Assembly (NCBI GenBank): GCA_017392345.1
Contig: JAFOVN010000022.1
Coordinates: 1-38,788, forward strand
Origin: Alphaproteobacteria bacterium
GTDB lineage: Bacteria > Pseudomonadota > Alphaproteobacteria > Rs-D84
Length of the DNA: 38,788 nt
Direction: 5' to 3'
Shown: in pieces, positions 1 through 38,788 of the stretch
Position numbering within the stretch: position 1 is the first letter of the stretch
Layout of the letters: each line of letters starts with the position of its first letter
The notes under the pieces: model-generated
What the model saw: the letters and a program-made list of their open reading frames with translations, nothing else
What the model was told of the DNA's origin: nothing
Databases searched by the model: none
Program-made: the position numbers and the translations under genes

Positions 1-681
1 AAGGCGAGCGCCTTGCGCGGATTTTATAAATTTTTAATGTTGGAACATATAATCACAAAAAATCCGGCAACGAATATCGAATTACCCAAACGGCCAAAAC
101 CGTTACCAAAATTACTAAGCACCAACGAAATCGAATTACTAATATCTTCGGCGGGCGATGTCCGCAACGCGACCCGTCTGCGCGCAATGATAGAATTGAT
201 TTACGCATCGGGCCTGCGCGTATCCGAACTTTGCGAATTACCAATGACGGCGATACTTGGCGACCGCCTTTTGATTCACGGCAAGGGTTCCAAGGAACGC
301 ATTGTCCCCATGCATGCCGAAGCACAAACCGCCCTTGCCCGATGGTTGCGTATGCGCGATGCGGACGAATCGAAATTTGTTTTTCCATCACGTGGTGCAT
401 CGGGCCACATAACACGCGACGGTTTTTTCAAATTACTAAAAAAGTGCGCAACACTTGCCGGAATTGCGCCTACGCGCGTTGGTCCGCATGTTTTGCGACA
501 TTCGTTTGCATCGCACTTGCTGTCGCACGGTGCAAATTTGCGCGCGATTCAAACCATGCTTGGACACGAAGATATATCAACAACACAAATTTACACGCAT
601 GTTCTGCCTGAAAAATTGCAACAGGTTGTCGCCGAACACCACCCACTTTCAGATAAAAAAGGACACACAAACAATGATTAA
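1..681 (+). CDS. xerD: Tyrosine site-specific recombinase, XerD/XerC family (5' end lies outside the window)
   Basis: The frame is open from nt 1 (KASALRGFYKF...), so the listed start at 13 (a TTG) is not the true start. Catalytic-domain motifs: LYASGLRVSEL, HGKGSKERIVP, LRHSFASHLL, GHEDISTTQIYTHV. Stop TAA at 679-681. Confidence 0.85.
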   Translation, partial: KASALRGFYKFLMLEHIITKNPATNIELPKRPKPLPKLLSTNEIELLISSAGDVRNATRLRAMIELIYASGLRVSELCELPMTAILGDRLLIHGKGSKERIVPMHAEAQTALARWLRMRDADESKFVFPSRGASGHITRDGFFKLLKKCATLAGIAPTRVGPHVLRHSFASHLLSHGANLRAIQTMLGHEDISTTQIYTHVLPEKLQQVVAEHHPLSDKKGHTNND

Positions 682-5443: not shown

Positions 5444-6367
5444 TTATATCACGCAATCTGCGCATTCCTTGGCCACACCGGCATAAACACCGGTATACCC
5501 ATGAATATAAGAAACCTCAAACATATTAATTGTATCAAATTTCATCATTGCTTGAAATACGGCTTGTTCCGTAGACACCAATCCGTGTTTTTTCATTATA
5601 TTTCTTACTTGTTCAAACCACACATAAAATTTATGTACCCATTCTGTATCAGCCATAAAACTACATGCTGGCACATCATAATCTGCATTTATCATTGCAA
5701 TATCAAGTAAATTTTGTTTAACCAACGTTTGGGATGTTGCAGGCGAAATTGGACCTTGCAATTTTTTATATAAGCGATAGATAAAGTTTGGAACAAAATG
5801 TGGTCGTGTCTTTCCAAGTGTTGGTGATATAGTTATGCGCACCCTTTCAGGTTTGGCCAAAATTTTTCCATCCCACTGTGCCCAAAAGCCGGCATACATC
5901 GGATGGAAAGAGCCCGCATCTATCCACATAAAATACTTTGACTTAAATTTATTTGTTTGCGCCGCCCAATCAAACACAGACGGTTTCGCGCCAATAAGTA
6001 TTAAGTAATCAACCCATTGCTCTGGTGTTTTATGATGAAATAAATATCCAACATTACCACGCATTCCATGTAAAATTTTCAACATTTCATCACGTTCTGT
6101 ATAATGAGGCAATGCGGAAAAATCCATCACACGCATATCAACATATTTTTCTAAATTTTCTTTTTTAATAAATTCTGCGGTTTCTTTATCGCACCACAAT
6201 GCAACTTTTTTAAAAGTATTTATCAATGTTTTTAATGACGGCAAATAAAATTCTTCAAACTTTCGCTGCATATGTTTTAGAGAATTCAAATCATTTTGCT
6301 GTGGCATCTTAAACAACATAGTGCAAAAAGTTATATCTGAACGTTTATTATCATACTTTATGCTCAT
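5444..6367 (-). CDS. Putative glycosyltransferase, HtrL/WlaTC(YibB)-like
   Basis: Resembles the HtrL_YibB family by eye (ITFCTMLFKMP near the N-terminus, WIDAGSFHP). The start at 6367 (MSIKYDN) has AAGGGA upstream, whereas the longer tracked start at 6397 has no SD. The gene is AT-rich. Confidence 0.45.
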   Translation of the reverse strand: MSIKYDNKRSDITFCTMLFKMPQQNDLNSLKHMQRKFEEFYLPSLKTLINTFKKVALWCDKETAEFIKKENLEKYVDMRVMDFSALPHYTERDEMLKILHGMRGNVGYLFHHKTPEQWVDYLILIGAKPSVFDWAAQTNKFKSKYFMWIDAGSFHPMYAGFWAQWDGKILAKPERVRITISPTLGKTRPHFVPNFIYRLYKKLQGPISPATSQTLVKQNLLDIAMINADYDVPACSFMADTEWVHKFYVWFEQVRNIMKKHGLVSTEQAVFQAMMKFDTINMFEVSYIHGYTGVYAGVAKECADCVI

Positions 6368-6480
6368 AACACATCCCTTTATTAAAAAATCCATCATTAT
6401 AGTAATCGAGTTTTAGCATATGCGCAATAATTATTACTTGTTGCAAACAATAAAAAAAACTGTTCTAATCATAATGCATT

Positions 6481-7326
6481 ATGAAAAAACATAGAATCTT
6501 TTTAATTGCCGGATACGACAAAGATGGAAAAATAAATTCCACACTAATTCATTTGGTGAAATCCTTTGCGAAATACGGTGATTGTGTTTTGATTATGGAT
6601 TCTGATTGCGATGAATCTGAAATTGCTAAGGTAAAACCGCATTGCCTATATGTCGCCGGCGCACGCCATGGCGAATATGATTTTGGTTCATACAAGCGAG
6701 CATATATTTGGGCGACCGAAAACACAAATTTATCAACCTATGATTTTATGTATATGGTGAACGACAGCGTATATGGCCCATTGTTTGATATCGGTGAATA
6801 CCTAAACAAGATGGAATCTTTCGGCACCGATGCATTCGGTATGGTTAAAAAAACAGGTGGAAAATTCCAACACATTCAATCTTGGTTTATCGGTATGCGA
6901 CCAACTGTATTTCTATCAAATTGGTTTAGCGATTTTATCACATCTGTAAAAAATGTCGAAAGCAAAACCGCCGTCACCGAACTTTACGAAAACGGGTTCA
7001 CACGCAAATTAAACGGACATAAAATTGCATGGAAATGCCTTTACGACATATACAATCGCGGAATTTATAATCGGGTCAAACACCTTTATAAAATCCGTAT
7101 GCCGTTTATCAAAAAACTTTCCTTTACGCGGCATTTCGGCGCATACGGACGACAGATTTTATATGTTCTAAACCATGTTCCAAAAAAATTGCGTGATGAT
7201 GTTTTATCCGCCGCGCGCGAAACGTTCGGAATAAAATATATAAATTGGCTTTTAACAAAAAATCCTGTTAAAATCTTATTGCGTAAAACAAAATATGTTA
7301 TATCGAGGCTGCTGTGCAAAAACTAA
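6481..7326 (+). CDS. Rhamnan-synthesis-F (RgpF)-like polysaccharide biosynthesis protein
   Basis: IFLIAGYDKDGKI..., GEYDFGSYKRAY, MVNDSVYGP, HIQSWFIGMRP. This pattern is typical of RgpF-family proteins. The gene is AT-rich. Confidence 0.55.
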   Translation: MKKHRIFLIAGYDKDGKINSTLIHLVKSFAKYGDCVLIMDSDCDESEIAKVKPHCLYVAGARHGEYDFGSYKRAYIWATENTNLSTYDFMYMVNDSVYGPLFDIGEYLNKMESFGTDAFGMVKKTGGKFQHIQSWFIGMRPTVFLSNWFSDFITSVKNVESKTAVTELYENGFTRKLNGHKIAWKCLYDIYNRGIYNRVKHLYKIRMPFIKKLSFTRHFGAYGRQILYVLNHVPKKLRDDVLSAARETFGIKYINWLLTKNPVKILLRKTKYVISRLLCKN

Positions 7327-8150
7327 AAAAAATTGCCGCCATCACAATGGCGCGAAATGATGAATTTTTTCTATCGCGGTGGGTTGAATATTACGGTCAC
7401 GAATTGGGAAATGAAAACCTTTATATAATTCTTGATGGAACCGACCAAGATGCGCCAAAAAACGCTAACGGCGCAAACATAATAAAACTGCCACACACGG
7501 ATATGTCACGTGCGGCTGGCGATAAATATCGTATCGGCAAAATAAACGAACTTGCAAATGAATTATTCAAAACTTACGACATTGTAATCGGTTGCGATTC
7601 GGATGAATTTTTAATCGTTGACCCGAACGCAAAAAAATCACTTCGCGAGTATCTATCCGAATCAAAATATAAAACAACCGTTTCCGGACTTGGATTCGAC
7701 ATTGGGCAAAATATGAAAACGGAAAAACCAATCGACACATCAAAACCAATGTTATCACAACGCGAATATGCCCTGCTTTCCACACGATACACAAAGCCGG
7801 TTGTTTTATTCCGTCCCGCCCGTTGGGGCAGTGGTTTTCACCACATCAAAGGCAAAAATTTTCACATTGATAAAAATTTATACCTGCTTCACTTTGGCGC
7901 GGTTGATATGAATATGTTGATTAAGAAAGCGGAAAAGCGCGGTGCCGATTGGGTAAATCACCTGCGACGCCGCGGAAACGGAACAATAAACGCGGTCACA
8001 ACCAAAACCGCACACGGCAAAACATGCATAAAATTTGCCCGCGTTATGCAACGCATATTCCGTCCAATATACGCACCCGGCAAACCTGGAATGATGGGAT
8101 TAAAGTGGGTTGTAAAAATTCCAAAAAGATTCAAAACTACTGCGATATAA
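7314..8150 (+). CDS. Glycosyltransferase family 2-like protein
   Basis: IAAITMARNDEFFLSRWVEYYGHELGNENLYIILDGTDQ and GCDSDEF (DXD-like). The GTG start at 7314 overlaps the upstream gene by 13 nt, and an alternative ATG lies at 7347. Confidence 0.55.
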   Translation: MQKLKKIAAITMARNDEFFLSRWVEYYGHELGNENLYIILDGTDQDAPKNANGANIIKLPHTDMSRAAGDKYRIGKINELANELFKTYDIVIGCDSDEFLIVDPNAKKSLREYLSESKYKTTVSGLGFDIGQNMKTEKPIDTSKPMLSQREYALLSTRYTKPVVLFRPARWGSGFHHIKGKNFHIDKNLYLLHFGAVDMNMLIKKAEKRGADWVNHLRRRGNGTINAVTTKTAHGKTCIKFARVMQRIFRPIYAPGKPGMMGLKWVVKIPKRFKTTAI

Positions 8151-9144
8151 ATTTTTCTATACGCCGTTTATATTTTTTTGCACGCATCCTTACCGGATTT
8201 TCAAGAATTCCCATATCGCGCATTTCCATAAACAACTGCTTTATTCGCGCAATATCTTTTTTATTTTCTATAACCGTCGCCAAACGTTTCATCGTAATTA
8301 TAAAAGGCCACAAAAATTCCGCATTAAATCGCCGCGCCTCTTTCGGCGTTGCAACACCCGCGCACACACCATACGCATGTTTTAACCCAACGCAAATACA
8401 TTCAAGCATAAACATTACTTTTGCGGTATGTAAAATAGATCCAACATTTGGCACATAAAAATACAGTGGCGCATCCAATATGACCGTTCGTGGCCGTGCA
8501 AACATTATGTCAACCCACCATGGAAAATCTTCGATAACTATCCCAGTAATAAATTTACATTTTTGCGCCAAATCGCGCCGTAACATTTTTAGCACCGGAT
8601 AACATTTTTTAACTGTAAATCGCCCCAACGCATGTGCACGTTCGGTCGCATATCCAAGTATATTATCGGTCACAACATGTGGAATTTTTTTTACATCATA
8701 TTTTTTTCTGTACGATTTAGGCACAAAATCTAAAACATCCACACCCGCCGCCAACATTTTTTCCATTTGTTTTCGCGCGGTCATATCAAACTTAAAAACA
8801 ACCATATCGGCATTATTATCAACCGCCGATTTATACAATATCTCTAAAGTTTGTGGATGAATAAAATCATCACTATCAAGGTATAAAACAAAATCACCTT
8901 TTGCAATTTTCGTTCCAAAATTTCGCGCATCTGATTGCCCGCCGTTTTCTTTGTACACGACGATAAAACGATTATCTTTTTTCGCATATTCTTTGGCAAT
9001 TTTTCCGGAATTATCGGGCGAACCATCATCAACACAAATCGCCTCAAAATCCAAAAACGTCTGATTTAACACACTATCCAAACACCGCCGCAGGTATTTT
9101 TCGACATTATACATCGGAATAATTATCGATATTTTCGGTCGCAT
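8137..9144 (-). CDS. Glycosyltransferase family 2 (paralog A)
   Basis: KISIIIPMYNVEKYLRRCLDSVLNQTF, VDDGSPDNSG, LDSDDFIHP. Its 3' end overlaps the convergent gene 7314..8150 by 14 nt. Confidence 0.85.
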   Translation of the reverse strand: MRPKISIIIPMYNVEKYLRRCLDSVLNQTFLDFEAICVDDGSPDNSGKIAKEYAKKDNRFIVVYKENGGQSDARNFGTKIAKGDFVLYLDSDDFIHPQTLEILYKSAVDNNADMVVFKFDMTARKQMEKMLAAGVDVLDFVPKSYRKKYDVKKIPHVVTDNILGYATERAHALGRFTVKKCYPVLKMLRRDLAQKCKFITGIVIEDFPWWVDIMFARPRTVILDAPLYFYVPNVGSILHTAKVMFMLECICVGLKHAYGVCAGVATPKEARRFNAEFLWPFIITMKRLATVIENKKDIARIKQLFMEMRDMGILENPVRMRAKKYKRRIEKFISQ

Positions 9145-11122: not shown

Positions 11123-12196
11123 TTATTCTTCCATCACACTTTCGTCCGCATCGTCCGACGGACCGGTCGTCATTTCTTCGGCAATACCACCCGCACGCGC
11201 CATAATTTTATCCAACAATTCTTGTTGCGCTTCTGGATGATCTTTTAGCCATTGGCGCGCATTCGCTTCGCCTTGGCCTATGCGTTCATTATTGTACGAA
11301 TAAAAACTGCCCGCCTTGTCGATAAAGTCATATTTCACACCCATATCCAAGATTTCACTTATCCGCGAAATTCCTTCGCCATACATAATCTTGAAATCAA
11401 CAGTGCGGAAAGGCGGCGCAACTTTATTTTTCACAACCTTGACCCGCGTTTCGTTTCCGATGACATTTTCCTTGTCTTTGATTGCGCCCGTGCGCCGAAT
11501 ATCAAGTCGCACCGAAGCATAGAATTTCAACGCATTACCACCACTGGTTGTTTCAGGGTTTCCGAACATCACGCCAATCTTCATACGAATCTGATTGATA
11601 AAGATAAGCAAAGTATTACTGCGTGACACCGACCCCGCAAGTTTTTTGAGTGATTGACTCATAAGCCGTGCGGTTGTTCCAACAAAACTGTCACCAATGT
11701 TGCCCTCTAATTCCGCCTTGGGCACCAGTGCCGCAACCGAATCGATAACCACAACATCAACCGCGCCGGATTTAATAAGTGTATCCGCAATTTCCAATGC
11801 CTGTTCCCCCGAATCAGGTTGCGATATAATCAGGTTTGCAACATCCACACCCAACTTTTTCGCATAACTTGGGTCCAACGCATTTTCCGCATCGATATAC
11901 GCACACGTGCCACCCTTCTTTTGCGCTTCGGCCACCGCGTGCAGTGCAAGCGTTGTTTTACCACTGCTTTCCGGGCCATAGATTTCAACGATACGTCCGC
12001 GCGGATAACCGCCAATCCCAAGTGCGATATCAAGCCCCAGTGAGCCCGAAGAAATCGCCTCTATATTCTGTTGCGAACCATCGCCCATTTTCATAATTGC
12101 TTCTTTGCCGAATTGCTTTTGAATTTGTGCAAGTGCCGATTCAAGTGCCGGATTTTTCGCGCCCGTCGTGGCCGCCGCCGTTTCTTTCTTTGCCAT
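11123..12196 (-). CDS. recA: Recombinase RecA
   Basis: MAKKETAA...[16 protein letters not shown], Walker [27 protein letters not shown], and the L2 region [28 protein letters not shown]. The ATG at 12196 has AAGGAAG upstream, and the tracked N-terminal extension to 12274 was discarded. Confidence 0.96.
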
Positions 12197-12223
12197 AATA
12201 ACTTCCTTTGCTATACGCCCTGT

Positions 12224-12251
12224 ATGATACCGCAAAAAAAACACTATGCAA
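12224..12251 (-). promoter_or_regulatory. Candidate recA promoter
   Basis: On the minus strand: TTGCAT (12251-12246), 16-nt spacer, TATCAT (12229-12224), preceded by an A-rich tract. No SOS box was seen, either alpha-type GTTC-N7-GTTC or CTGT-N8-ACAG. Confidence 0.4.
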
Positions 12252-12267
12252 TTTATTTTTTTATTCC

Positions 12268-12542
12268 CCTTCACTGTGTGAAGGGGGGGACCGCGGCACC
12301 GCCGTGCGGTGACGTGGTGGGGTAGTTTCCTTCACTGTGTGAAGGGGGGGACCGCGGCACCGCCGTGCGGTGACGTGGTGGGGTAGTTTCCTTCACTGTG
12401 TGAAGGGGGGGACCGCCGAAAGGCGGTGGGGTAGTTTCCTTCGCTGTGTGAAGGGGGGGACCGCGGCACCGCCGTGCGGTGACGTGGTGGGGTAGTTTCC
12501 TTCACTGTGTGAAGGGGGGTGCCAACGGAACCGCCGGGGGGT
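12268..12542. repeat. Tandem array of about 4.7 copies of a 61-bp two-hairpin GC-rich unit
   Basis: Unit: CCTTCACTGTGTGAAGGGGGGGACCGCGGCACCGCCGTGCGGTGACGTGGTGGGGTAGTTT. Copies start at 12268, 12329, 12390, 12438 and 12499. Copies 1 and 2 are identical, copy 4 differs by one A>G, copy 3 is 48 bp with a replaced second hairpin, and copy 5 is degenerate. Confidence 0.95.
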
Positions 12543-32686: not shown

Positions 32687-32935
32687 ATGAAAAATGCAAA
32701 CCACGGAAGTTTTGATAACCAACAATTGCTTGGTATCATCGAACGAATCGAAAAATTAAACGAAGATAGCGCGGCCATTGCTGCGGATATCAAAGAAATT
32801 TTCACAGAGGCCAAATCCGCCGGATACGACCCGAAATACATTCGGCAAATGATTCGTCTGCGTAAAATGGACCCGGATGAATTAGACGAAACCGACGAAT
32901 TGACCAAGATGTATCGCAATGCACTTGGGCTGTGA
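32687..32935 (+). CDS. gapR: DUF2312 / GapR-family nucleoid-associated protein
   Basis: QLLGIIERIEKLNEDSAAIAADIKEIFTEAKSAGYDPKYIRQMIRLRKMD is the characteristic UPF0335/DUF2312 sequence. 82 aa. Confidence 0.85.
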   Translation: MKNANHGSFDNQQLLGIIERIEKLNEDSAAIAADIKEIFTEAKSAGYDPKYIRQMIRLRKMDPDELDETDELTKMYRNALGL

Positions 32936-32943
32936 TTTTACAA

Positions 32944-33258
32944 ATGAAAAAATTCACAAAAACTGTTGAAAATTTTACCTGCGCACACTGTGGTGCAACT
33001 GTCACGGGCAATGGATACACAAACCATTGCCCGCGGTGTTTATGGTCGCGTCATGTTGATAATAATCCCGGCGACCGCGCATCCACATGTGGCGGTATGA
33101 TGGAACCGATTTCCGCCGAACCGTCCGGTGACGGATTTATCATCACACACAAATGTCAAAAGTGCGGAAAAACGATTCGCCAACACAGCGCCGAAAACGA
33201 TGATATTGATGAAATCATCAAACTATCATCGAATTCGGATTTTATTTTTGGTAAATAA
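32944..33258 (+). CDS. RNHCP-domain zinc-ribbon protein
   Basis: FTCAHCGATVTGNGYTNHCPRCLWSRHVD...CGGMMEP...HKCQKCG. The ATG at 32944 is preferred over the overlapping GTG at 32932. Confidence 0.7.
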   Translation: MKKFTKTVENFTCAHCGATVTGNGYTNHCPRCLWSRHVDNNPGDRASTCGGMMEPISAEPSGDGFIITHKCQKCGKTIRQHSAENDDIDEIIKLSSNSDFIFGK

Positions 33259-34906: not shown

Positions 34907-36838
34907 ATGAAAAAATTTCTGTATAATCAACGCGAAAATTTATTTTTATGGTCACCGATTGTGACGGCGTTCGGTATTGCACTTTATTTTTCATTATTTA
35001 ACGAACCAAAGATTACCACACTTGCAATTATGTTTATAATTGGTATTGCCGCAATAATCGCACTGCGGCGGCGACCATTTTTTGCAATCATCGCATGTTT
35101 TATATTGGGCTTTGGATACGCCGGAATATACACGCATATAAAAACAGTTCCAATGCTGCGCCACGATATCCACGACATTGAAATAACCGGTCGCGTAACA
35201 GAAATTGACACTGGTGGCGAAAAGACAAAAATATACATGCGCACTGAAAACTTTGGGAAAGTCCGCGTATCAACAACCGACACAATCAATATAAAAATTG
35301 GTGACACAATATCCGGCAATGGCGGCCTATTCAAACCAAAACCTGCGGACATACCACATGGATTTGATTTTGCAAGGCATATGTATTTCAAAAACCTTTC
35401 CGCAACCGGATATTTGCGCGACACAAAAATTATCTATACGCCGGATTCTGGCGTATACAGCGTTCGCGAACCCATACACGAATTATCAAAATCTTTTCTA
35501 ACAGACACACTTGTTTTGGGTTATAAAAACGCCCTGCCCGATGGGCATCGCGACACATGGGCAACAAATGGCATAGCACACATTTGGTCAATCAGTGGTT
35601 ATCATATGACACTTATTGGTGGTTGGTTATTCATATTGTTTTATTTTATATTCAGACTAATTCCGCCCCTTGTTCGTCATGTTCCCGCACGTATACCTGC
35701 CCTTGCCTGCACATGGATTGGATTACTTGGGTATATTTTTATATCCGGCGCCGGCGTTGCAACACTGCGCGCATTTATCATGGCAACGCTTGTTATGGTG
35801 GCATTTATGTTTGGACGCAACGCATTATCATTGCGCATGATATCAATTGCACTTTTTGCAATTATGATTTTCAATCCATATTATGTAATGACCGCGGGGT
35901 TTCAGTTATCTTTTGCCGCAATTTTTGGAATCATATGGTTGTGGCAAAACATGAACCCACGAACACCAAATTCAAAAGCATTAAAATATGTCTATACGGC
36001 GATTTTAACCGCATTGGTGGCAACGGTATTTACCGCACCATTTATAATTTTACACTTTGGGGCAATACCGATTTACGGTATTATCGGCAACATTATATTC
36101 CTGCCAATCTTTTCTTTTATCATAATGCCACTTGTTATCATTGGCACAATGTGCGCATGCGTTGGAATACATACGCCACTTGAAATCGCACACATAATAT
36201 ACGACCGTGCATACTCAATCGCCGAAAAGTTATCACAAATACCATATTCAGAAATCACAATCGGCAATATACCAAACGGCGCAATTATACTAACAATTAT
36301 CGGTTTTGCATGTTTAATCTTTATCAAAGATGATACAAGTTTTAAAAATTTCTTCGCCCGCCACATTGGACCGGTATCCGCAATTTTATTTATCTGTGCC
36401 GGCATAACCATTTGCACAACAACCGAAAAACCAATTTTTTATATAAGCCACGACCACAAACTTATCGCCACACCGATCAACGGCAAATTACAATTCAACA
36501 AATCACACGACAGTGGAAATTATTTTGCCTTTGATAATTGGAAGAAATTTAACAGTGAAAAAACCGGTACGGAAAATTTACGCTATACGGCTGAATCCGG
36601 CGTATACACAATTTCACAACAAAATTTTGACATTGTTTATTTCAAAAATTTTGTATCACTTTCTAAACACTTTTCAAACCTTTGCGATAATCCACACATA
36701 AAATATATCGCATCAAACTTTGATATAAAATCTGAAAAATGTGCGGACAAAATCATCCATGGTGGTGGCGTTATATACAAATCTGGGAAAATGATTCAGA
36801 TTCCATCTAATCGGTGGTGGCATAATCGGCCTGAATAA
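34907..36838 (+). CDS. comEC: ComEC/Rec2-family DNA internalisation channel protein (no obvious metallo-beta-lactamase domain)
   Basis: An N-terminal OB-like/DUF4131 region is followed by the competence domain with NGIAHIWSISGYHMTLIGG and many TM helices. The C-terminal ~150 aa lack an HxHxDH motif. Confidence 0.8.
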   Translation: MKKFLYNQRENLFLWSPIVTAFGIALYFSLFNEPKITTLAIMFIIGIAAIIALRRRPFFAIIACFILGFGYAGIYTHIKTVPMLRHDIHDIEITGRVTEIDTGGEKTKIYMRTENFGKVRVSTTDTINIKIGDTISGNGGLFKPKPADIPHGFDFARHMYFKNLSATGYLRDTKIIYTPDSGVYSVREPIHELSKSFLTDTLVLGYKNALPDGHRDTWATNGIAHIWSISGYHMTLIGGWLFILFYFIFRLIPPLVRHVPARIPALACTWIGLLGYIFISGAGVATLRAFIMATLVMVAFMFGRNALSLRMISIALFAIMIFNPYYVMTAGFQLSFAAIFGIIWLWQNMNPRTPNSKALKYVYTAILTALVATVFTAPFIILHFGAIPIYGIIGNIIFLPIFSFIIMPLVIIGTMCACVGIHTPLEIAHIIYDRAYSIAEKLSQIPYSEITIGNIPNGAIILTIIGFACLIFIKDDTSFKNFFARHIGPVSAILFICAGITICTTTEKPIFYISHDHKLIATPINGKLQFNKSHDSGNYFAFDNWKKFNSEKTGTENLRYTAESGVYTISQQNFDIVYFKNFVSLSKHFSNLCDNPHIKYIASNFDIKSEKCADKIIHGGGVIYKSGKMIQIPSNRWWHNRPE

Positions 36839-37550
36839 AGTAAAGTCCGCACGCCGGTGCCGTTGCCCCCGCCGCCGAACGATTGCGTGCCGCAAAAATT
36901 TCATTTATATCATATGGTGTCCCAAGCCCGATTTCAACCAATGTTCCAACCATATTTCGAACCTGGTGATGCAAAAATGAACGCGCCGAAAAATCAAAAA
37001 CGATTAAATCGTCTTTTTTTTCTATACGGCAAGAATCAAGGGTTTTTATCGGGCTTTTCGCCTGGCACTGCGACGCACGAAATGATGTAAAATCATGCTT
37101 TCCAACCAAAGCCCGCGCCGCATCACGCATTTTTTTAACATTTAATTTCCGTGGCACCCACCAAGCACGATTTTTATCCAACACCGGCGGTGCCGAACGA
37201 TTTAGAATAATATATTTATAATGCCGCATAACACACGAAAAACGCGCATTAAAATCATCGGGAACAATTTCGCAATCAACCACCGACACCGGTGCATCAT
37301 TCAGGTAAAAATTCACCGCCCGCATAACCGTATTCGCATCCACATCGGAATCCAAATCAAAATGCGCAACCATTGCAACCGCATGCACCCCCGCATCCGT
37401 CCGCCCCGCCCCAACGACATCCGGTCGCACACCACAGAATTTTTCAATCGCATCTTTTAACAACGATTGCACCGATGGCCCCTGGCGATTTTCCTGCCAG
37501 CCAATCAGATTCGTTCCATCATATTCAAAGATTACTTTATATCGCGTCAT
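36807..37550 (-). CDS. truA: tRNA pseudouridine(38-40) synthase TruA
   Basis: YKVIFEYDGTNLIGWQ, GAGRTDAGVHA (catalytic Asp), FLHHQVRNMVG. The 3' end overlaps comEC by 32 nt. Confidence 0.93.
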   Translation of the reverse strand: MTRYKVIFEYDGTNLIGWQENRQGPSVQSLLKDAIEKFCGVRPDVVGAGRTDAGVHAVAMVAHFDLDSDVDANTVMRAVNFYLNDAPVSVVDCEIVPDDFNARFSCVMRHYKYIILNRSAPPVLDKNRAWWVPRKLNVKKMRDAARALVGKHDFTSFRASQCQAKSPIKTLDSCRIEKKDDLIVFDFSARSFLHHQVRNMVGTLVEIGLGTPYDINEIFAARNRSAAGATAPACGLYFIQADYATTD

Positions 37551-37554
37551 TATT

Positions 37555-37764
37555 TTACCTTTGCACAGAACAACACGATGTGCACATTGGATTCACACCC
37601 TTAAAATAATCAATAGTACTAGTACAATTATCAGGTGGAAACTCAGAGCATAACACACCCCTGCATTCTTTTTCTGAACAATTCAGACACATACATTTGC
37701 CATTTTTATTATGTTGTGAAATTACTACTTGTTGTTTTTTACTCAAACAATATTTTTCTTCCAT
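37555..37764 (-). CDS. Small Cys-rich protein B (69 aa, 10 Cys)
   Basis: A GGAGAA SD lies 6 nt before the ATG at 37764, and the stop is 4 nt before the truA start. Pattern: C-x17-C-x-C-x2-C-x4-C-x4-C-x7-C-x13-C-x2-CC. The gene is AT-rich. Confidence 0.55.
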   Translation of the reverse strand: MEEKYCLSKKQQVVISQHNKNGKCMCLNCSEKECRGVLCSEFPPDNCTSTIDYFKGVNPMCTSCCSVQR

Positions 37765-37780
37765 CTTTATTCTCCAAACT

Positions 37781-38068
37781 TTATCTCAAATAACCATTTT
37801 TCTTATATTGCGCCATACACCCAATGCACCTATTTGACAAAGATTTTGCAAATTCTTGTTCTAATTGTTTTGGCCAATCACACTCTTCGCATTTACTATG
37901 ATCCGTCTGCACACAATCAACACACCTGCAAGGGGTCTTTGAACCAATAACCACCCCAACCCCATTTTGACCAATATGTTCAAAAGTCCCGCTTTGATTG
38001 TATTCTGATTTCGCAACCCTTGTGTTTTTATATGCACAATAAGTATCATATTCTCGTTCATTACTCAT
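37781..38068 (-). CDS. Small Cys-rich protein A (95 aa, 8 Cys)
   Basis: The ATG at 38068 lies 2 nt after the fmt stop, with a GGGGAA SD inside the fmt 3' end. Pattern: C-x35-C-x-C-x2-C-x7-C-x2-C-x17-C-x2-C. The tracked extension to 38125 overlaps fmt. Confidence 0.55.
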   Translation of the reverse strand: MSNEREYDTYCAYKNTRVAKSEYNQSGTFEHIGQNGVGVVIGSKTPCRCVDCVQTDHSKCEECDWPKQLEQEFAKSLSNRCIGCMAQYKKNGYLR

Positions 38069-38070
38069 TT

Positions 38071-38788
38071 TTATTCCCCAAACTTTATTTCTGCACCACG
38101 CAGTCCATTTACAAAACTTTTCCAATCCATCGGTTTTTTACCCGCGGGTTGAATTGTTAAAATTTCCAAATTATCACCATTCATTTTTGTCTTTAAAATC
38201 TTAACATCAATTCCGTTTATTTTTGTCCGACCCGCGCCCATGCTGCGGATCAAATTATGTATTTCAATCGGCGATTTTTTCCAATCGATAATTTCGTCGT
38301 ATACACCGGTTTTCGCCGTATAGACAATTTTTCCACTTTGCGGAATCGGTGAATATTTTTGCGGGTTTTCCATATATTCCAAAATCATATCCGCGCCAAT
38401 TTTTGAAACCTTTTGTTCAACAGTTTCGGTTGTGTCATCAATATCAATATCAAACCTGCGACACATTAAAATATCACCCGCGTCCAGTTCCGCCACCATT
38501 TTCATCAAACAAACACCGCTTTCCGTGTCCCCATTTTTAATTGCGGTTATAATCGGCGAAGGCCCACGATACAGTGGCAACAAACTTGGGTGCAAATTTA
38601 CACACGGCGCCGAATTCAAAACATTATCACGCAATATCGCACCATATGCCGCAACAAAGACCATATCGGGCGTAAAATTATATTCGGCGGGTTTATGATA
38701 GACCGGCAACCCCCGCGATTCCGCCCACACGTGCACCGGCGATTTTGTAATAACATGCTTTCGCCCAACCGGCTTTGGCGCGCGTGTA
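38071..38788 (-). CDS. fmt: Methionyl-tRNA formyltransferase (5' end lies outside the window)
   Basis: The frame stays open to the window edge (RAPKPVGRKHVITKSPVHVWAESRGLPV). Motifs include VNLHPSLLPLYRGPSPI and a C-terminal beta-barrel domain. Confidence 0.9.
   Translation of the reverse strand, partial: TRAPKPVGRKHVITKSPVHVWAESRGLPVYHKPAEYNFTPDMVFVAAYGAILRDNVLNSAPCVNLHPSLLPLYRGPSPIITAIKNGDTESGVCLMKMVAELDAGDILMCRRFDIDIDDTTETVEQKVSKIGADMILEYMENPQKYSPIPQSGKIVYTAKTGVYDEIIDWKKSPIEIHNLIRSMGAGRTKINGIDVKILKTKMNGDNLEILTIQPAGKKPMDWKSFVNGLRGAEIKFGE

Follow-up and report, generated by a model that had tools for sequence, protein, structure and literature searches.

Between the methionyl-tRNA formyltransferase gene fmt and the tRNA pseudouridine synthase gene truA of an alphaproteobacterium of the lineage Rs-D84 lie two small, Cys-rich open reading frames (ORFs), ORF-A and ORF-B, which are distant paralogs in one previously undescribed orphan family, here termed F1. 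They occur in a 38,788-nt (38.8-kb) stretch of DNA (contig JAFOVN010000022.1 of assembly GCA_017392345.1), the whole of which is called the window below. The reading that we favor, with a probability of roughly 60%, is that F1 consists of lineage-restricted small cytoplasmic proteins carried in an integrase-free cassette slot between fmt and truA of Candidatus Enterousia (Ca. Enterousia)/Rs-D84 gut bacteria. The genes and junctions concerned all lie on the minus strand of the window:

38071..38788, minus strand: 3' part of fmt, which extends past the window end (Pfam Formyl_trans_N, 6.8e-24; Formyl_trans_C, 2.1e-9).
38066..38091, minus strand: junction copy 1, consisting of the functional fmt tail (E I K F G E stop), AA, and the ATG of ORF-A.
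37781..38068, minus strand: ORF-A, 95 amino acids (aa), 8 Cys, an F1 member of the 'MAQYK..G.LR' subfamily (orthologs 69-96% identical).
37762..37787, minus strand: junction copy 2, consisting of a scar (fossil fmt tail), AG, and the ATG of ORF-B.
37555..37764, minus strand: ORF-B, 69 aa, 10 Cys, a compact F1 member (orthologs 86-90% identical).
36807..37550, minus strand: truA, the downstream anchor of the slot (Pfam PseudoU_synth_1, 3.1e-37).

The layout reported in a preliminary description of this DNA, with the fmt stop at 38071 and gaps of 2, 16, and 4 nt between successive genes, was reproduced on the minus strand, as were the Cys cores that it had named (PCRCVDC in ORF-A and KCMCLNC in ORF-B) and its hand-counted base composition (20/60 G+C at 37601-37660 and 41/60 at 37381-37440). 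ORF-B has a GC content of 0.329, among the lowest 3.6% of 210-nt windows, and a GC content at third codon positions (GC3) of 0.24; the corresponding values for ORF-A are 0.372 and 0.29, while the whole window has a GC content of 0.437 and the GC3 of fmt and truA, at 0.41-0.43, lies above that of both small ORFs. The suggestion that the ORFs were acquired agrees with this atypical composition, with their accessory distribution, and with their absence from the closest relatives. The Shine-Dalgarno sequence of ORF-A (GGGGA) lies inside the last fmt codons (GAA ATA AAG TTT GGG GAA TAA), and that of truA (AAAGG) sits within the final ORF-B codons. Neither an Rfam family nor a terminator-like site was found in the fmt-truA interval, and promoter-like matches there were not clearly beyond shuffled expectation. 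The tight packing within a def-fmt-truA unit, an own Shine-Dalgarno sequence for each ORF, and the lack of a terminator-like site suggest that the pair is cotranscribed, as had been proposed. Dual coding accounts at least in part for the basic C-termini of cassette proteins (..KQR, ..QKTR, ..QKQK), whose codons also hold the following gene's purine-rich Shine-Dalgarno sequence.

ORF-A and ORF-B are ~25% identical, and a direct BLASTP comparison is marginal (E=0.083). What they share is the F1 pattern of eight Cys, C ... CxCxxC ... CxxC ... CxxC, plus the Asn of a V..SEYN..G motif. All eight Cys and the Asn are invariant in an alignment of 22 slot ORFs; when database proteins are included (45 sequences), six Cys remain invariant, and conservation is at least 90% for the other two and for the Asn. 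In ORF-A, the eight positions are C11, C47/C49/C52, C60/C63, and C81/C84; in ORF-B, they are C6, C24/C26/C29, C34/C39, and C61/C64, with CxxxxC (CRGVLC) replacing the middle CxxC. The hairpin motif [FY]C-x5-V-x2-S-[EQ]-[YFH]-N-x2-G is present in both (ORF-A, YCAYKNTRVAKSEYNQSG; ORF-B, YCLSKKQQVVISQHNKNG), and relative to the compact form ORF-A carries an 18-aa insert between SEYN..G and CxCxxC. A hidden Markov model (HMM) built from 15 members of neither subfamily recovers ORF-A at E=1.1e-7 and ORF-B at E=2.5e-6 among 13,523 six-frame ORFs, and an hhalign profile comparison of the two subfamilies yields E=2e-4. Both genes also occupy the same position, between fmt and truA and on the same strand. 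A word-indexed search of 5.8e9 proteins found 19 F1 proteins, and exhaustive searching of 1.84e9 representatives with an HMM gave 37, which are 47-134 aa long save two likely spurious ones; none is named or carries a Pfam domain. Pfam, NCBIfam, PHROGs, and PADLOC hold no significant match for ORF-A, ORF-B, or representatives of F1 and of the two other slot families, F2 and F3, introduced below, and PDB sequences gave none for the F1 profile. Library, PDB-profile, and Foldseek searches thus yield no described family, in keeping with the preliminary description, which had recognized none.

The two ORFs are genuine genes, as had been supposed. The ratio of nonsynonymous to synonymous substitution rates (ω) is 0.16-0.58 for ORF-A and 0.21-0.65 for ORF-B, with 0.07-0.17 for the flanking genes in the same genome pairs; since ω is below 1 in both ORFs, they are protein coding, and the overall range of 0.16-0.65 indicates purifying selection. 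The reading frames are intact in cassette-bearing relatives, and the eight Cys are kept despite ~25% identity. Low GC, together with the lack of any annotation or family, is what spurious ORFs in a noncoding spacer would also present, but frames that stay open in every cassette-bearing genome, eight Cys retained at such low identity, ω below 1 with a synonymous excess, and correctly spaced Shine-Dalgarno sequences reduce this explanation to a negligible probability. A 66-aa ATG ORF in an alternative frame inside ORF-A (37861..38061, minus strand) serves as a comparison: it is truncated in relatives (34-40 aa in loci L008, L009, and L014; L numbers denote loci), as a nongene would be, and is not conserved and probably not a gene.

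Several further observations concern F1-like sequences. The codons for 'MAQYK' near the C-terminus of ORF-A (ATGGCGCAATATAA, 37803..37816, minus strand) match the truA start (ATGACGCGATATAA) at 12/14 nt. We did not adopt the view that this tail is a truA-head relic; MAQYK..G.LR is conserved across the whole divergent subfamily, so the match is either an absorbed ancient head or a coincidence. The database protein P0006, which joins an Aminotran_5 N-terminus to the last 30 aa of ORF-A, was rejected as an assembly chimera; the corresponding 739-bp ENA scaffold (L011) changes source twice, and its middle segment runs from the end of ORF-A through the scar into the start of an F2b ORF. A back-translated motif scan of viral contigs found no F1 protein, and an acidic 123-aa ORF (L102) has only the string EYN..G.C.C..C. 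Finally, a 38.6-kb metagenome contig (Ga0114923_10000352; L180, 5464..9774) carries ~18 same-strand small Cys-rich ORFs of 63-105 aa in two interleaved families, one of which has YN..G.CPC..CI.KCMC and a weak F1 HMM score (E=2e-5); the contig has no fmt/truA context and may be viral, and its array might be remotely analogous to the F1 core.

To place the pair among relatives, the fmt-truA interval was compared across loci from a truA-based scan with one genome per species, which gave ~57 loci from rumen and gut metagenome-assembled genomes (MAGs) and 65 after further loci were added. The scanned loci are labeled Candidatus Enterousia or uncultured Alphaproteobacteria, and their truA products are 61-97% identical to that of the window. 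These bacteria belong to the order Rs-D84; their genomes are ~0.75-1.0 Mb and encode a fermentative metabolism without a tricarboxylic acid cycle or respiratory chain (PMC12306168). The fmt stop and the truA start were located in 67 loci, and the gap between them spans -4 to 770 nt. The slot is empty in 19 of the 67, including the window's nearest relatives L012 and L013 (truA 96-97% identical); in 12 of these 19, including all ten of the window's clade, the fmt TAA overlaps the truA ATG (GAATAATGAC), and the other seven have either a 4-nt overlap of the fmt stop with the truA start or a distance of 0-3 nt between them. Occupied loci hold 164-770 nt with one or two small Cys-rich ORFs, mostly separated by spacers of 2-32 nt. 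At least three Cys-rich families (F1, F2, and F3), with no significant HMM match across families, share the slot, whose contents include the following:

F2: slot family with the pattern P.WC.YC.YFG..VCY..LFGP..V.FD..C..F.Y.
F3: slot family with the pattern C..C.F.GEN..RLCAE..WKWYNQINPIKKWLLERTGFKFKNR.
Fusions of slot families: F1-F2, 117 aa, in L039/L049/L066; F3-like-F2b, 158 aa, in L054 (3307-3783).
Fusion with a further type: a fourth Cys-rich type joined to F1 in P0049, 134 aa.
Slot states near the window, single cassettes: ORF-A type alone in L001-L006; ORF-B type alone in L016 and L021, directly after fmt.
Slot states near the window, other: A+B in the window and L007-L009; A+F2b in L014 and L020; and empty slots.

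The cassette fusions may reflect functional association, or just the loss of a stop codon between packed cassettes. A neighbor-joining tree of Fmt plus TruA interleaves the slot states at its tips: sister pairs are the window (A+B) and empty L012, L014 (A+F2b) and empty L013, and L007 (A+B) and empty L017. The comparison of relatives that the preliminary description had called for shows that the ORFs recur with their Cys pattern kept and are not disrupted, save for a first cassette in L036 (2950..3165) that has decayed to fragments. The fmt-truA slot is thus a family-wide cassette hot spot, where close relatives differ by the gain, loss, exchange, and stacking of cassettes. Three F1-like ORFs are stacked on a metagenome contig (L125, 7936..8955), and two loci hold spacer DNA: a 213-nt AT-rich noncoding spacer before truA in L048 (1883..2097) and a 110-nt spacer after fmt in L058 (3268..3380).

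Matches to the F1, F2, and F3 HMMs are confined to the fmt-truA interval in the window and in 90 loci with flanks extending to ~2.5-6 kb on each side. Every F1 gene with a readable context lies between fmt and truA of Ca. Enterousia and its relatives. Three of the most divergent F1 members (P0033, P0039, and P0051) likewise lie in a def-fmt-[X]-truA arrangement with convergent comEC. A context-free scan of metagenomes with the back-translated motif E-Y-N-x2-G-x-C-x-C-x2-C returned 120 stretches, which contained 14 strong F1 ORFs in 10 loci, all adjoining fmt and/or truA. The neighbors at all loci are def, fmt, truA, comEC, pyrG, and pyruvate kinase.

The junction between ORF-A and ORF-B records how the pair arose. 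The repeat reported earlier (38088-38066 and 37784-37762, 21/23 matches) was confirmed and extends to 26 nt with 23/26 matches (88%; GAAATAAAGTTTGGGGAATAAAAATG vs. GAGATAAAGTTTGGAGAATAAAGATG), the two copies lying 304 nt apart; a search allowing up to three mismatches found only these two sites in the window, where none is expected (100 shuffles). Read in the other frame, the second copy is GAG ATA AAG TTT GGA GAA TAA, an intact fmt tail (E-I-K-F-G-E-stop), which supplies both the ORF-A stop (AGA TAA) and the ORF-B Shine-Dalgarno sequence (GGAGA); its GGAG is the Shine-Dalgarno sequence that the real fmt tail gives to the first cassette. In L001, which has ORF-A alone and no scar, ORF-A ends ...TAT TTG AGA CAA AAA TGA (QK), with its stop overlapping the truA ATG; in the window, the sequence after TTGAGA reads TAAAGTTTGGAGAATAAAG-ATG. 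The join falls at GAGA, which is common to the ORF-A end (TTGAGA) and the fmt tail (GCAGAGA in L016, L020, and L021). An identical scar precedes ORF-B in L007 and L008 and an F2-type ORF in L014 and L020, and it is identical even in genomes whose own fmt tail is of the 'KY' type. Independent scars are present in L023 (TAA-A-ATGACGCGAT-GCAAAATATGGAGAATAA-AAT-ATG, a truA head followed by an fmt tail, between cassettes) and in L077 (AGATGACACGG..., a truA head overlapping the stop of the first cassette), whereas older arrays have no recognizable scar.

Two junctions exactly one 304-nt unit apart with a 23/26 match, flanking homologous ORFs, are what a recent tandem duplication of the fmt tail with ORF-A would leave if the second copy then diverged to ORF-B. 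We regard this origin as very unlikely. The scar is 88% identical, yet ORF-A and ORF-B are ~25% identical; since ORF-A orthologs that are still 69% identical already occur in genomes with flank synonymous divergence (dS) above 0.9, a fall from 100% to 25% within the lifetime of the scar is implausible. Orthologs of ORF-B stand alone behind a functional fmt tail in L016 and L021, and ORF-A stands alone in L001; the same scar lies ahead of a different family in L014 and L020; and the 22- and 45-sequence alignments suggest that the A and B types are not each other's closest relatives. The preliminary description was therefore right that the second junction copies the fmt tail, but the cassette itself was not duplicated along with it, and its account of a recently expanded pair fails for the same reasons. 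Because each ORF occurs singly elsewhere and the scar also precedes another family, we conclude instead that the pair consists of pre-existing alleles of one slot that became stacked.

Synonymous divergence reveals that cassettes also move between species. Between L016 and L021, ORF-B has a dS of 0.00 against 0.63 for truA and 0.89 for fmt, and between L014 and L020, F2b has a dS of 0.00 against 0.73-0.74 for the flanks. Sliding identity in these pairs is 96-100% over the cassette and ~80-90% over the flanks; at least two cassettes have thus been recently transferred across species. The reverse incongruence was also observed: ORF-B of the window has a dS of 1.0 relative to that of L016, with flanks at 0.55-0.61, and the F2 genes of L050 and L041 have a dS of 1.58, with flanks at 0.26-0.36. 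Cassettes accumulate nonsynonymous changes 3-10 times faster than their flanks, and the mosaic identity of the slot flanks indicates frequent recombination.

Based on these observations, we propose a mechanism of slot expression and growth. Cassettes would carry no promoter of their own and would be read from the def-fmt-truA mRNA, each with its Shine-Dalgarno sequence inside the final codons of whatever gene or cassette precedes it; F1 cassettes are, by this arrangement, presumably translated. Homologous recombination, for which fmt and truA would provide the arms, would swap slot alleles (empty, single, double, triple, and fused) among strains and species. Array growth would result from an illegitimate, microhomology-mediated crossover between the resident allele and an incoming [fmt-tail-ORF-truA] allele, which in the window's lineage would have joined the ORF-A end at GAGA to a point 21 nt before the fmt stop, leaving a 26-nt fossil fmt tail. 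As the route, we propose natural transformation combined with homology-facilitated illegitimate recombination.

Homology-facilitated illegitimate recombination is a described feature of natural transformation in Acinetobacter baylyi and Streptococcus pneumoniae. It resembles the slot in combining one homologous anchor (here truA) with a join at 3-10 nt of microhomology (here GAGA), and it sets foreign DNA next to resident DNA and copies the adjoining sequence, a duplication seen here in the scar. In the Enterousia slot, this mechanism is putative; only ComEC, RecA, and RuvAC were seen in the window, with recA, ruvC, and ruvA among the ORFs at 11123..12274 (minus strand), 17321..17827 (plus strand), and 19706..20281 (plus strand). 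The term itself occurs in PMC8116780 and PMC3410848.

Integron arrays offer a second parallel, since they too consist of short, promoterless, same-strand ORFs that are driven from upstream, shuffled, and variable among relatives, and that encode many small unassigned proteins. The slot differs in that fossil pieces of its own flanking genes (fmt tail and truA head) mark the boundaries, which points to homologous and illegitimate recombination. An attC site is an imperfect inverted repeat of ~57-141 nt at the 3' end of a cassette; no attC-like site was found, the inverted repeats in 37450-38200 being only 15-20 nt long, 78-80% complementary, and inside ORF-A, and neither IntI nor attI adjoins the slot. 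The sole recombinase-family ORF of the window is a Phage_integrase-family ORF, possibly Xer-type, at 13..681 (plus strand), with 37 kb between it and the slot; near the slot, the window contains neither transposase nor prophage genes. Strain-variable islets at recombination hot spots between core genes are a general concept of bacterial pangenomes. Like these, the slot has core-gene flanks and many alternative contents, including an empty allele; typical hot spots, however, are larger, are bounded by tRNA genes or integrases, and hold mixed cargo, whereas the slot spans 0.2-1 kb, holds a few Cys-rich, slot-specific families, and forms a translationally coupled junction.

A cassette whose product promotes its own copying into empty fmt-truA junctions, in the manner of a selfish homing element, might also be exclusive to the slot, be identical in flanks that differ by 10-20%, and leave scars holding fmt-tail and truA-head sequence; a weak library match, P0045 (E=5.6e-4), even has HNH-like Cys spacing. 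That lead was dropped, as Pfam does not recognize P0045 as HNH. The F1 alignment contains no conserved His, Asp-His, or Asn-His, and no member has a Pfam HNH match; the proteins are 53-117 aa long and lack a conserved catalytic set of His, Asp, or Glu, searches matched neither nuclease nor recombinase families, and many clades show vertical inheritance. Self-copying by the cassette product is thus highly unlikely.

Turning from the slot to its products, the eight F1 Cys most likely form two structural Zn(Cys)4 sites, as suggested by the conservation of all eight, the lack of an evident signal peptide, and the hydrophilic composition. The earlier idea of a zinc-ribbon-like product is strengthened accordingly in so far as the Cys pattern fits two Cys4 sites and the proteins are probably metal binding. 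An AlphaFold2 (AF2) model of the canonical member P0036 has a β-hairpin at residues 7-18, one short helix, a loop region rich in Cys, and a pair of helices at the C-terminus; a Foldseek search with this model gave no PDB match and no significant BFVD match. The F1 profile picked up a single PDB sequence, Stc1 (2luy), a LIM-like tandem zinc finger that binds two zinc ions through eight Cys in a similar order; the match is not significant (E=0.37), there is no Foldseek match, and only the Cys spacing is alike. F1 proteins also recall the C(P)XCG proteins HVO_2753 and HVO_0758 of Haloferax volcanii (PMC11241148, PMC10716476), which are likewise <100 aa and cytoplasmic, with a fold expected to depend on Cys4 sites; several zinc-finger microproteins of this type have two sites, their roles are mostly regulatory or unassigned, and they have been missed by annotation. 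F1 has no sequence or fold match to them, however: its pattern is C / CxCxxC / CxxC / CxxC with a SEYN..G β-hairpin rather than C(P)XCG pairs, and it is bacterial, is confined to a single genomic slot, and differs in presence from one sister genome to the other.

High Cys contents (8/95 and 10/69), the CxCxxC motif, and other small Cys-rich genes nearby, such as an RNHCP-domain ORF at 32932..33258, might instead point to metallothionein-like metal buffers or zinc stores. This is a very improbable role for F1: searches for SmtA/BmtA-type metallothioneins gave no Pfam match at E<=1 or NCBIfam match at E<=10 for ORF-A, ORF-B, or the 45 members, and no bacterial metallothionein model was matched; 8-14% Cys is below typical metallothioneins; non-Cys positions (V, S-E-Y-N, and G) are conserved, with a β-hairpin and helices predicted; and presence or absence differs between sister genomes of the same habitat.

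The preliminary description had also raised peptide precursors and host-directed effectors. Small, Cys-rich, strain-variable peptides would suit either a ribosomally synthesized and posttranslationally modified peptide (RiPP) or bacteriocin precursor or a secreted effector. Radical-SAM (S-adenosylmethionine), lanthipeptide, protease, and ATP-binding cassette export genes are absent, though, from the annotated neighborhoods and the large window ORFs scanned, and in the loci examined no maturase adjoins the cassettes and no leader-core architecture of the SCIFF, ranthipeptide, or sactipeptide kind is present. Conservation runs over the full length rather than dividing into leader and core, and there is no SCIFF- or ranthipeptide-type NCBIfam match. 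The two products are hydrophilic (grand average of hydropathy, -0.85 and -0.49), and neither a hydrophobic N-terminal leader nor secretion is evident by eye or from composition, although no signal-peptide predictor was run. These ideas are therefore set aside as extremely unlikely.

The strict linkage to def-fmt-truA in more than 70 loci raises the question of whether the products modulate or chaperone the neighboring translation enzymes or their substrates (Def, Fmt, TruA, or initiator or elongator tRNA). Def is a metalloenzyme. The Fmt of this lineage is short, at 267 aa in relatives (L001, 5193-5996), with Formyl_trans_C matched only at positions 6-47 of 100, and its tRNA-binding C-terminal domain appears truncated. 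Against such a role, the slot is empty in close relatives that share the same fmt and truA, and Fmt and TruA must therefore work without cassettes; at least three families without a cross-family HMM match are interchangeable in the slot, and cassette proteins evolve 3-10 times faster than their supposed partners. We consider a translation-related role improbable. The narrower idea that cassettes compensate for the short Fmt C-terminal domain was rejected, as empty-slot genomes share the same fmt end.

With low confidence, we suggest that F1 proteins may be zinc-stabilized binding modules that act on a fast-evolving partner, with a strain-specific or conflict function rather than a housekeeping role in translation; a conflict-type role is favored because the cassettes are dispensable, fast-evolving, exchanged between species, and interchangeable among mutually dissimilar families. 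A more speculative extension, which we hold to be rather unlikely, is that the fmt-truA junction is an integrase-free 'mini-integron', that is, a dedicated expression slot in an essential, translationally coupled operon; promoterless cassettes for several orphan zinc-finger families would be captured, stacked, and fused in it and would pass between species by transformation and recombination, and these conflict cassettes (e.g., anti-phage or anti-mobile-element factors, anti-competitor factors, or self-propagating elements) would be kept by frequency-dependent selection.

Several points weigh against the view of F1 as cytoplasmic, zinc-stabilized cassette proteins exchanged through an integrase-free slot. 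In the ORF-A clade, cassette dS is 2-4 times below flank dS yet proportional to it, and this deficit could stem partly from AT-rich codon usage or from imports that inflate flank divergence, not from transfer; in other clades, the two dS values are close, as would fit cassettes that descend mostly vertically while their proteins evolve fast. The AF2 model of ORF-B (15 sequences) failed, with a predicted local distance difference test score (pLDDT) of 39, and that of P0036 (45 sequences) reached moderate confidence (pLDDT 70; predicted template modeling score, 0.51). CxxC-rich microproteins do not always bind zinc (PMC11241148). Transcription, translation, and metal binding of F1 are predicted, the proposed route presupposes that these uncultured bacteria are competent, and no molecular target is indicated by neighbors, domain, or fold. 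The slot exclusivity of F1, moreover, pertains to ~6-12 kb around the loci (mostly 8.7 kb) and to one 38.8-kb window rather than to complete genomes.

A slot-specific hot spot with orphan Cys-rich microproteins is previously undescribed, while small zinc-finger proteins and recombination hot spots are already known. At least three small Cys-rich families without relatives in curated libraries are added to widespread uncultured gut bacteria whose ~0.75-1-Mb genomes hold few accessory genes, so that those that persist are likely to be informative. The slot also displays an unusual form of gene flux, in which promoterless cassettes of less than a kilobase are swapped at one operon junction without a dedicated recombinase, and its readable recombination scars allow array growth to be reconstructed, which makes it a tractable case for the origin, diversification, and fusion of microproteins. 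If the cassettes are conflict or defense factors, the slot would represent a new micro-scale type of variable locus that is missed by island and defense finders.

The rest of the window is ordinary chromosome, encoding comEC, pyrG, pyruvate kinase, mnmE, recA, ruvA, ruvC, serS, and typA among others. The genes truA and comEC (34907..36838, plus strand) are convergent, and their 3' ends overlap by 32 nt at 36807..36838; the overlap recurs in relatives, e.g., in L001 (truA, 6291-7034; comEC, 7003-8937). The RNHCP-domain ORF mentioned above (plus strand; Pfam, 9.1e-29) encodes a small Cys-rich protein of 108 aa and is conserved beside a GapR-type gene in relatives, its L001 counterpart being called at just 52 aa. 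Three of the loci with ORF-A alone (L001, L003, and L005) are from the assemblies GCA_016295045.1, GCA_016295295.1, and GCA_016648415.1 (JAEEGI, JAEEGK, and JAEEGH), where they lie on Enterousia-like contigs of 5-30 kb; the contig numbers of these assemblies run from thousands to tens of thousands. If the assemblies are eukaryotic, the occurrence of Enterousia-like contigs in them would hint at host association.

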